A stretch of 64,000 bases of DNA, taken from Octopus vulgaris. Lineage: Eukaryota. A program made the translations under genes and the position numbers. Position 1 is the first letter of the stretch, and each line of letters opens with the position of its first letter. Below, piece by piece: positions 1,232-63,244 of the stretch. Below the pieces are notes generated by a model. It was given only the letters and a program-made list of their open reading frames with translations, had not been told where the DNA came from and made no database searches. The stretch is from NCBI GenBank assembly GCA_951406725.2, contig OX597823.1, positions 80,290,001-80,354,000 on the forward strand. The letters run 5' to 3'.

Positions 1232-4200
1232 AAGTGATGGTCGTGGTTGACTGGTATTTGGTGGTTGTGGTCAAAGTTGAAACAGTTCTTGGAGCAGTAG
1301 TTATTCCTGCTGTAGTAGAGGGAGAAACGCTTGATGTTGTAACTGAAGGCACAGCAGTCGTTGTGGCTGGTAGGGAAGCAGTTGTTGGTCCCATAGTTGA
1401 TGGCTTTGGTGTTGTAGCAGCTGAGGTTGCTGGTGATACAGATGTTGTTGTTGTTGCTGATGGTGCAGTAGTTGTTTCCACCGTTACACCAGATGTATAT
1501 TCAGAAAATTCAACTGTAGGTGTACTTGCAGCAGTTGTTGTTGAGGGCACAACTGTGGTTGCTGTGGTCCTAACTGCTGTGGTTGTGGTACCAGTTGTTG
1601 TTGCTGATGTTCCTGTAGAAGATATTGCTGTTGTAGTTGCTGTTGCAGCACTTGTTGTTGCTGATGGTGCAACAGTTGTTGCTGATGGTCCCATAGTGGA
1701 TGTTGCTGGTGGCACAGTTGTTGTTGTCGCTGATGGTCCTAGAGTCGGTGTTGCTGTTGTAGTTGCAGTTGCAGGAGTCAATGTTCCTGAAGGTGCAGCA
1801 GTTGTTGTTGCTGATGTTGCAGCAGTTGTTGTTGTTGCAGTGGTTGTCACTCCTGATGTTCCCATAGTGGATGTTGCTGTTGGTACAGAAGTTATTGTTG
1901 CTGATGGTCCTACAGTTGGTGTTGGTGCTGTAGTTGTTGCTGTTGCAGGAGTCGTTTTTGTTGATGTTGCTACAGTTGTTGCTGCTGATGATACAGCAGT
2001 TGCTGTTACTGATGGTGCAGCAGTTGTAGTTGCTGATGGTGCAGCAGTTGTTGCTGATGGTGCAGCAGTTGTTGCTGATGGTGCAGCAGTTGTTCCTGAT
2101 GGTGCAGTAGTTGTAGCTGATGGTGCAGCAGTTGTAGTTGCAGTTGAAGGAGTCGTTGTTGCTGATGGTGCAGCAGTTGTTGTTGCCGGTGGTGCAACAG
2201 TTGTTGTTCCTGATGGTGCAGCGGTTGTTGTTGCTGATGGTGCAGCAGTTGTTCCTGTTGGTGCAGCAGTTGTAGTTGCTGTTGAAGGAGTTGTTGTTCC
2301 TGGTGGTGCAGCAGTTGTTGTTCCTGATGGTGCAAAAGTTGTTTTACTTGCCGTTGAAGGAGTTGTTGTTCCTGATGGTGCAGCAGTTGTTGTTGCTGAT
2401 GGAGCAGCAGTTGTTGTTGCTGATGGTGCAGCAGTTGTTGTAATTGCTGTTGAAGGAGTCGTTGTACCTGATGGTGCAGCAGTTGTTGTTGCTGATGGTG
2501 CAGCAGTTGTTGTACTTGCTGTTGACGGAGTCATTGTTACTGATGGTGCAGCAGTTGTTGTTGCTGATGGTGCAGCAGTTATTGTAGTTGCTGTTGAAGG
2601 AATCGTTGTTCCTGATGGTGCAGCAGTTGTTGTTCCTGGTGGTGCAGCAGTTGTTGTAGTTGCTGTTGAAGCAGTCGTTGTTACTGATGGTGCAGCAGTT
2701 GTTGCTGATGGTGCAGCAGTTGTTGTAGATGCTGTTGAAGGAGTCGTTGTTCCTGATGGTGCAGCGGTTGTTGTTGCTGATGGTGCAGCAGTTGTTGTAG
2801 TTGCTGTTGAAGGAGTCGTTGTTCCTGATGGTGCAGCGGTTGTTGTTCCTGATGGTGCAGCAGTTGTTGTTGCTGATGGTGCAGCAGTTGTTGTAGTTGC
2901 TGTTGAAGGAGTCGTTGTTCCTGATGGTGCAGCAGTCGTTGTTGCTGATGGTGCAGCAGTTGTTGTAGTTGCTGTTGAAGGAGTCGTTGTTCCTGATGGT
3001 GCAGCGGTTGTTGTTCCTGATGGTGCAGCAGTTGTTGTAGTTGCTGTTGAAGGAGTCGTTGTTACTGATGGTGCAGCAGTTGTTGTTGCTGATGGTGCAG
3101 CAGTTGTTGTAGTTGCTGTTGAAGGAGTCGTTGTTCCTGATGGTGCAGCGGTTGTTGTTCCTGATGGTGCAGCAGTTGTTGTTGCTGATGGTGCAGCAGT
3201 TGTTGTAGTTGCTGTTGAAGGAGTCGTTGTTCCTGATGGTGCAGCAGTTGTTGTAGTTGCTGTTGAAAGAGTCGTTGTTCCTGATGGTGCAGCAGTTGTT
3301 GTAATTGCTGTTGAAGGAGTCGTTGTTCCTGATGGTGCAGCGGTTGTTGTTCCTGATGGTGCAGCAGTTGTTCCTGATGGTGCAGTAGTTGTTGTAGTTG
3401 CTGTTGAAGGAGTCGTTGTTCCTGATGGTGCAGCAGTTGTTGTAGTTGCTGTTGAAAGAGTCGTTGTTCCTGATGGTGGAGCAGTTGTTGTAGTTGCTGT
3501 TGAAGGAGTCGTTGTTCCTGATGGTGCAGCGGTTGTTGTTCCTGATGGTGCAGCAGTTGTTGTTCCTGATGGTGCAGCAGTTGTTGTAGTTGCTGTTGAA
3601 GGAGTCGTTGTTCCTGATGGTGCAGCAGTTGTTGTAGTTGCTGTTGAAGGAGTCGTTGTAGCAGATGGTGCAGCAGTTGTTGTTCCTGATGGTGCAGCAG
3701 TTGTTGTAGTTGCTGTTGAAAGAGTCGTTGTTGCTGATGGTGCAGCAGTTGTTATTCCTGATGGTGCAGCAGTTGTTGTAGTTGCTGTTGAAAGAGTCGT
3801 TGTTCCTGATGGTGCAGTAGTTGTTGTAGTTGCTGTTGAAGGAGTAGTTGTTCCTGGTGGTGCAGCAGTTGTTATTCCTGATGGTGCAGCAGTTGTTGTA
3901 GTTGCTGTTGAAAGAGTCGTTGTTGCTGATGGTGCAGCAGTTGTTGTAGTTGCTGTTGAAGGAGTCGTTGTTCCTGATGGTGCAGCGGTTGTTGTTCCTG
4001 ATGGTGCAGCAGTTGTTGTTGCTGATGGTGCAGCAGTCGTGGTAGTTGCTGTTGAAGGAGTCGTTGTTCCTGGTGGTGCAGCAGTTGTTGCTGATGGTGC
4101 AGCAGTTGTTGTAGTTGCTGTTGAAGGAGTCCTTGTTACTGATGGTGCAGCAGTTGTTGTAGTTGCTGTTGAAGGAGTCATTGTTCCTGATGGTGCAGCG

Positions 4201-63244: not shown

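Follow-up and report, generated by a model that had tools for sequence, protein, structure and literature searches.

A giant, poorly annotated gene of the discoidin-bearing mucin kind in Octopus vulgaris, probably encoding a secreted gel-forming protein

Does a stretch of 64,000 nucleotides (nt) of Octopus vulgaris DNA (assembly GCA_951406725.2, contig OX597823.1, positions 80,290,001 to 80,354,000; hereafter the window) hold a single giant mucin-like gene that combines TIL/VWC, LDLa-like and discoidin-like domains with very long Pro/Thr/Ser-rich (PTS) repeats, as an original prediction from the letters alone had proposed, and what kind of protein would it encode? We found that the locus is real, expressed and spliced, and that its product most likely belongs, as a giant, among the gel-forming mucins with discoidin domains known from invertebrates. 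The window probably holds 20 exons of one 92-exon gene for a secreted gel-forming mucin of ~10,900 residues, of the invertebrate F5/8C-bearing kind related to hemolectin and SCO-spondin, which would polymerise into a hydrated, O-glycosylated gel. The unusual features of this mucin are its size, seven to eight discoidin domains that are invisible to Pfam, the lack of both D4 and CysD, and a single linking cysteine in D3.

We annotated the window by hand, using six-frame translation and splice-site scans, and obtained 20 minus-strand exons running from 63244 to 1232. Each of them is bounded by AG..GT, the phases chain, and the lengths sum to 15,562 nt or 5,187 codons, in agreement with the more than 5,100 amino acids (aa) first proposed. 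The phase consistency proposed at that time holds, but the count of 22 exons was too high: when all introns of the window were scanned exhaustively under relaxed conditions, no convincing 21st or 22nd exon emerged. The exon chain is real, far beyond chance. Exons are numbered here after the 92-exon model, and coordinates outside the window are contig positions minus 80,290,000.

The gene enters the window with exon 52 (63184..63244), which holds the end of a VWC-like module and a Thr linker and whose junction is present in the public O. vulgaris model CAI9729267.1. Exon 53 (60504..60733) is a TIL-like Cys-rich module, recognised by sequence signals and Cys spacing. It is followed by exon 54 (57681..57781; partial VWC, Pfam E 6e-5), exon 55 (56556..56676; Thr/Ser linker and VWC start, whose phase 2/0 closes the chain) and exon 56 (56043..56190; VWC, Pfam E 4e-7). 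The LDLa-like part of the window is the single exon 57 (53135..53212), a symmetric exon of 78 nt that is absent from public models and is LDLa-like only by its acidic D-x-x-D-E/6-Cys motif, with no Pfam match up to E 10. Then come a second TIL-like Cys-rich module (exon 58, 45447..45652), a VWC-like module in two parts (exon 59, 43394..43510, and its end in exon 60, 41801..41858), and a TIL-like exon 62 (38427..38570; Pfam TIL E 0.02) between Thr-rich linkers of 36 nt (exon 61, 39562..39597) and 48 nt (exon 63, 36893..36940). Exon 64 (35317..35754) encodes a 145-aa discoidin-fold domain with Cys at both ends. Two more Thr-rich linkers, exon 65 (45 nt, 31175..31219) and exon 66 (78 nt, 26612..26689), lead to a second discoidin-like domain, 36% identical to the first (exon 67, 24770..25183), and to a 33-nt linker (exon 68, 23308..23340). 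The remainder consists of PTS block 1 (exon 69, 13019..21226; 2,736 codons, with a putative donor at 13019), a 51-nt linker (exon 70, 8109..8159) and PTS block 2 (exon 71, 1232..6178; 1,649 stop-free codons in 24-nt Thr/Ala units), with which the model leaves the window. Of the modules originally claimed, VWC was thus recovered by Pfam and TIL weakly so, while the LDLa-like part kept its motif and failed in Pfam; a true LDLa lies outside the window, at 88238 (Pfam E 1e-6). The two PTS exons (8,208 and 4,947 nt) together have 4,385 codons, which bears out the claim of more than 4,300 aa. The long plus-strand frames at 13000-21234 and 1198-6222 mirror the PTS codons, and we rejected them as genes. 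A perfect (AAG)80 tract lies at 59292-59533, in the intron that separates exon 53 from exon 54.

Are these exons joined in RNA? Sampling of sequencing runs with exon 64 listed 24 runs, 11 of which, from four studies, contained all sampled words. We aligned assembled contigs of four runs, one per study, to window positions 21000-26800. None of the 24 runs is recorded as RNA; we treated the contig runs as RNA because their joints coincide with GT-AG introns. The joints 26612/25183 and 24770/23340 were present in all four runs and 23308/21226 in three of the four, each with CT..AC ends, and a contig from one run had a loose end matching the letters of exon 65. The latter two joints therefore place discoidin exon 67 on the same spliced RNA as PTS block 1, and the spliced connection of the discoidin exons to the first PTS exon, on which the original prediction depended, is seen in contigs of three of the four runs. 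Overall, 12 of the 19 internal window junctions have outside support from contigs or a public gene model; the other seven (five in 60504-45652 and two at 13019/8159/6178, which flank exon 70) were called from sequence signals alone.

To what protein do the window exons belong? We searched the assembly (2.8 Gb, 227 contigs) and added 200 kb on each side of the window for exon chaining. The full model has 92 exons over 233 kb (188,895 to -43,992) and encodes 10,862 aa. All 91 introns are GT-AG, and the phases are continuous from the signal-peptide exon through to a stop codon with an AATAAA ~90 nt past it; three small corrections were adopted from public models. Exons 1-51 (aa 1-2574) lie past the right end of the window (contig 80,354,560-80,478,895). 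They encode a signal peptide, a region that we take to be EMI-like from its motif, EGF repeats, three VWD-C8-TIL assemblies, two LDLa-type modules, TIL/VWC modules, and one sure and one probable discoidin-like domain. The signal peptide is a hydrophobic first exon found by scanning, without a dedicated predictor, and is identical to the start of the O. sinensis protein XP_029640374.1. Exons 72-92 (aa 7762-10862; contig 80,246,008-80,289,782), past the left end, encode TIL/VWC modules, four tandem discoidin-like exons that are 80-98% identical, PTS block 3 (1,668 codons) and an 11-Cys cystine knot, and end in the stop and AATAAA.

Pfam, applied to 60 exon pieces, recognised the EGF repeats, three VWD, three C8, TIL, VWC, one LDLa (to which two degenerate motifs may be added) and DAN/Cys_knot, with no TSP1 repeat. 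The DAN/Cys_knot match falls in the penultimate exon, the knot itself spans the last two, and these last exons match the VWF CTCK (E 0.003); from the phases, the knot appears to be on the same chain as the head. A genome-wide VWD scan (92 matches) assigned three domains to the locus; 3' of the third there was no further match, nor did we find a GDPH motif there. CysD (Mucin2_WxxW) gave no Pfam match in the exons or public models, and no WxxW motif occurs outside a frameshifted stretch described below. A separate second gene starting between the PTS exons was considered and rejected, as the search gave no credible signal exon, only a repeat-derived candidate. The signal peptide, VWD-C8 units and cystine knot that were to be looked for beyond the window are therefore all in the model, which with three VWD/C8/TIL units and PTS has the suspected toolkit of a secreted gel-forming mucin.

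The suspicion that automated annotation would mishandle the gene also proved right, since the public models are truncated at 2,443 and 3,061 aa. XP_029640374.1 ('mucin-2', 2,443 aa) is 98.3% identical over model aa 1-2399, signal exon included, and then ends. CAI9729267.1 ('von Willebrand factor-like', 3,061 aa) shares 99.8% identity with window exons over 539 aa and lacks several exons; its end comes from reading on into the intron that follows exon 68, which the spliced contigs contradict. Measured by junction-spanning 11-mers, 62 of the 90 junctions of a 91-exon version were present in either public model. With the junction into PTS block 1, seen in contigs of three of the four runs, outside support in the final model amounts to 63 of 91.

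What are the discoidin-like domains? Six copies each occupy a single exon, two of them in the window and the other four downstream; they share 35-98% identity, and their terminal cysteines are invariant. Exons 36-37 together encode a seventh copy (independent E-value, iE, 4e-11), and an eighth is probable in exons 44-45, which neither discoidin profile matched and for which an Atlas score of 0.85 is no more than a lead. Searching the genome at the protein level, we recovered only the same six copies (15 candidates scored). Pfam F5/8C (PF00754) matched none of the six, nor did the genome scan place it anywhere in the locus. We modelled one copy, exon 64, with AlphaFold2 from a 6-row alignment, and obtained an all-beta structure (pLDDT 77, pTM 0.74). 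Its best structural matches in Foldseek and VIA-align were neuropilin b1, F5/8C, CBM32, discoidin I and other galactose-binding-like folds (TM ~0.5-0.63, Z 9-12, no clear leader), and the Atlas agreed with a discoidin fold at 0.93-0.94, on fewer than 170 shared features. The discoidin-like exons are thus predicted to adopt a galactose-binding-like beta-sandwich. Of the two discoidin-like domains originally claimed for the window, neither is an F5/8C domain for Pfam and one has the fold by prediction.

A profile of the octopus copies found 105 relatives among 1.84 billion proteins. Among them are a chiton 'mucin-2-like' protein with seven near-identical tandem copies between Thr-rich spacers, an annelid protein with TIL and VWC, and the Macrostomum lignano protein PAA50248.1. 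Bacterial Ig-repeat proteins (6 of 16 matches scanned) were judged spurious and left out of a deeper profile. The subfamily is tied to F5/8C by sequence too, because in one relative the same stretch matches both the octopus subfamily profile (iE 1.5e-27) and Pfam F5/8C. A 90-copy profile matched the three F5/8C domains of an amphioxus protein weakly (iE 1e-4 to 9e-3), and hhalign of the octopus profile against that protein gave a probability of 0.4%. A PDB sequence search with the profile returned two weak unrelated matches; word-index homologue searches with single exons gave none among 263 and none among 10 candidates, and a third was swamped by FCGBP. The four downstream copies, 12-29 kb left of the window, each sit in a unit of 4-5.5 kb that also contains two linker exons; the four units are recent tandem duplicates. 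A linker exon has apparently been lost from one of them, and a shifted acceptor appears to be used in another.

Is the long PTS part an open frame? The three PTS blocks make up 6,053 aa, or 56% of the chain, with 32-42% Thr and ~2,900 Thr plus Ser. Exon 69 is composed of 12.8 copies of a 147-nt unit followed by ~90 units of 54-57 nt and has a length divisible by three, but as assembled it contains four stops (model aa 4619-4707). In this respect the original prediction was confirmed in part only: exons, PTS and splicing stood, an uninterrupted frame did not. Four of the 90 parsed units are non-triplet (59, 70, 53 and 55 nt at 17498, 17160, 16811 and 16758). They cancel pairwise within the zone 16703..17498, the pair 17498/17160 enclosing all four stops and the pair 16811/16758 being stop-free. 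We consider an assembly error quite probable, because the odd units are confined to 0.8 kb of a 6-kb array whose units are nearly identical, a setting in which consensus errors are to be expected; a young null allele would be the less probable cause. On the 3' side of the stops there are two stop-free 5-kb PTS frames, and all six pairwise comparisons among the four tandem discoidin exons give a dN/dS (the ratio of nonsynonymous to synonymous change) of ~0.2-0.6, from few sites and without a significance test, so that the exons beyond the stops look to be under constraint.

Three further observations concern the same repeats. The 57-nt array (13150-19290) shows a higher-order duplication of ~2 kb, one run of unit types being present twice. 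In one sequencing run the last 147-nt unit reached a depth of 15,592 at 21107-21112, ~10 times that of unique exons and in line with 12.8 copies, and up to 148,000 at 21051-21082, for which overlap counting, a longer allele or another transcript are candidates. The divergent letters of the contigs at 21000-21193 are those of other copies of the 147-nt unit.

Does any known protein share this architecture? The original prediction had held that the domain order matched none of the gel-forming mucins, hemolectin, Sfp1 or SCO-spondin exactly; as a claim of uniqueness this is overstated. M. lignano PAA50248.1 (UniRef A0A1I8G0U9; uncharacterised, partial) is colinear with the octopus model: it is 38% identical over 1,611 aa and likewise has signal peptide, EGF, three VWD, a degenerate LDLa and TIL/VWC, followed by 4-5 domains of the same divergent discoidin subfamily within Thr-rich linkers. 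However, the M. lignano models (3,400-3,800 aa) lack the long PTS array and the cystine knot. Amphioxus proteins are 40% identical over the head, one of them with three canonical F5/8C domains; an amphioxus relative is automatically named SCO-spondin-like. In a tree of the D1-D3 region from ten sequences, a sampling that leaves out hemolectin and SCO-spondin, octopus grouped with Macrostomum (0.998) and then amphioxus, apart from vertebrate mucins.

The octopus head is ~30-33% identical to two vertebrate mucins. With MUC2, MUC5AC, MUC5B and MUC6 it shares the D1-D2-D3 head, a D3-type C8 with the equivalent of MUC2 Cys1088, long PTS and, in the full model, a terminal cystine knot; it differs in its EMI-like/EGF N-terminus, its LDLa and discoidin modules, and the lack of CysD, D4 and an equivalent of Cys1130. 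MUC6 is likewise not known to have D4, and vertebrate gel-forming mucins are about half as long as the octopus protein. SCO-spondin, which has an EMI start and an F5/8C domain, likewise has three VWD units and then LDLa, whereas the octopus protein has two to three scattered LDLa-like modules, no TSP1 repeats found, and a chain dominated by PTS. The sea-star protein Sfp1 (426 kDa) also unites VWD, C8, EGF and discoidin in one large secreted chain, but it is cut into four subunits and has a lectin domain, and neither its order nor the PTS bulk is common to both.

The class itself is already known, and the domain order is not unique. In Lang et al. (2016, PMC4948705), F5/8C is described as characteristic of lophotrochozoan mucin-like proteins, and invertebrate mucins as closest to SCO-spondins. 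Those lophotrochozoan proteins also have three VWD-C8-TIL units, PTS, and discoidin-type domains after the third unit. They carry CysD among the F5/8C domains, unlike octopus, whose 7-8 discoidin domains are too divergent for Pfam and whose PTS reaches 6,053 aa. The name Octopus is absent from the one supplement file of that paper that was searched. Our literature searches found neither the full architecture of a protein with the octopus discoidin subfamily, nor a paper on the octopus gene or the M. lignano protein.

How could such a chain build a gel? By analogy with MUC2 and VWF (PMC7599080), two chains would be joined tail to tail via the cystine knot, and the dimers would then be linked head to head through D3. 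According to the same source, D3 of MUC2 is linked by Cys1088 and Cys1130, and Cys1130Ala yields a mix of monomer and dimer. In octopus, the third C8 aligns best to the D3 C8 of MUC2/5AC/5B (E 2.5e-14) and keeps the Asp-Cys of MUC2 Asp1087/Cys1088 (our numbering, by a 20-residue offset). The TIL after it is an ordinary one, and octopus, Macrostomum and two amphioxus proteins all lack the Cys1130 segment, which is present in four of four vertebrate mucin D3 regions. The head-to-head link would therefore depend on one disulfide, at the Cys1088 equivalent, and covalent head links may be weaker than in MUC2, because MUC2 Cys1130Ala is only partly dimeric. The three PTS blocks would act as glycan carriers. 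Because CysD is absent and the discoidin-fold modules lie in a like position among Thr-rich stretches, the latter might serve as non-covalent cross-links or as glycan- or surface-binding knobs, in the place of CysD in MUC2/MUC5. A bolder and doubtful idea is that this Pfam-invisible subfamily is the spiralian counterpart of CysD, multiplied separately in octopus, chiton and flatworm, and cross-links mucin chains via their own O-glycans, offsetting the one-disulfide D3. O-glycosylation, disulfide polymers and gel formation are thus suggested by composition and conserved cysteines, and the four stops of PTS block 1 would most likely be consensus errors of the tandem array.

Could the same gene serve another purpose, as a blood-cell protein for clotting or matrix, similar to hemolectin, or as a cohesive or adhesive secretion of egg strings or sucker, rather than a surface mucus gel? 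We think this unlikely. Three VWD units followed by discoidin domains do resemble hemolectin, yet hemolectin is a 3+2 VWD protein: insect hemolectin/hemocytin has two further VWD units after F5/8C and at most a very small PTS (PMC4948705), whereas in octopus no fourth VWD was found and the PTS is more than half of the chain. Adhesion finds parallels in the discoidin domains of Sfp1 and sea-urchin Nectin (PMC7037938) and in a limpet pedal-mucus protein with three VWD, C8, TIL and LDLa (PMC7333891). Contig depth reached 1,500 in one run and 6.5-12.5 in the three others, a difference of more than 100 times. Depth of this kind is a poor measure of expression; it hints at a restricted expression site and to that extent suits a clotting or adhesive protein. 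Octopus skin-mucus proteomes are reported to contain mucin-19-like, mucin-4-like and SCO-spondin-like proteins (PMC11431876, PMC10138644).

Several points weigh against a surface gel-forming mucin of full length. None of 17 peptides of the gene is among the rows listed in the skin-mucus peptide table of PMC10138644, where mucin rows are present. The ligand, tissue and gel properties proposed above draw on sequence and analogy, and a shared fold shows no function, so that glycan or surface binding by the discoidin-like domains is a suggestion from their predicted structure. The five junctions in 60504-45652 and all 23 junctions 3' of exon 69 are crossed by no read or public model, and CAI9729267.1 probably comes from the same DNA and hence is not independent. 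The frameshifts of exon 69, likely assembly errors, were judged from the assembly sequence. The exon 69 donor is weak; read-through would meet a stop after four codons and an AATAAA ~430 nt further. These last points, with junctions 69-91 drawn from splice signals only, would also fit a shorter protein, whose transcripts would terminate within exon 69 to give ~6,100 aa without a cystine knot, the 3' exons being a separate or alternative unit, or in which the four assembled stops are a real null allele cut at aa 4619. The flatworm and amphioxus models likewise end without a cystine knot, though they are apparently partial. We hold this shorter protein to be quite unlikely: no credible start or signal exon was seen in the 3' part, which reuses the same TIL/VWC/discoidin modules, appears to be under purifying selection and contributes the cystine knot missing from the 5' part, and the odd units cancel pairwise within their near-identical array.

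The surroundings contain further genes of the VWD kind. A second VWD/TIL gene lies ~430 kb away on the opposite strand (80,898,700-80,915,100, plus); it is 31-43% identical to parts of the head, and tblastn gave no discoidin-like match in it. Another multi-VWD locus with a similar exon split is on the same chromosome (56,077,500-56,120,500, plus), and a long tandem VWD cluster, FCGBP-like in appearance, is at C3:25.2-25.6 Mb. Near the gene, a 647-codon frame resembling a long interspersed element (LINE) reverse transcriptase occurs 64-66 kb left of the window, 20 kb past the gene end. A 438-codon low-complexity minus-strand frame ~169-170 kb right of the window is probably an exon of the upstream neighbour.

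With these results, a mucin covered to 22-28% by the database entries found now has a near-complete model, and the spliced contigs show that the annotated stop of a public model is wrong. Mucus proteomics against the existing entries is blind to the last two thirds of the protein. The work also defines a divergent discoidin subfamily in octopus, chiton, annelid and flatworm, whose 145-residue domain is an expressible unit for glycan arrays. As the general class is known, this is useful to specialists more than startling: the octopus gene is an extreme, poorly annotated version of a known invertebrate mucin kind. It raises the evolutionary question of invertebrate mucin heads that polymerise with one disulfide rather than two, and cross-linking by the discoidin subfamily, if true, would be a second, lectin-based way of mucus gel building.

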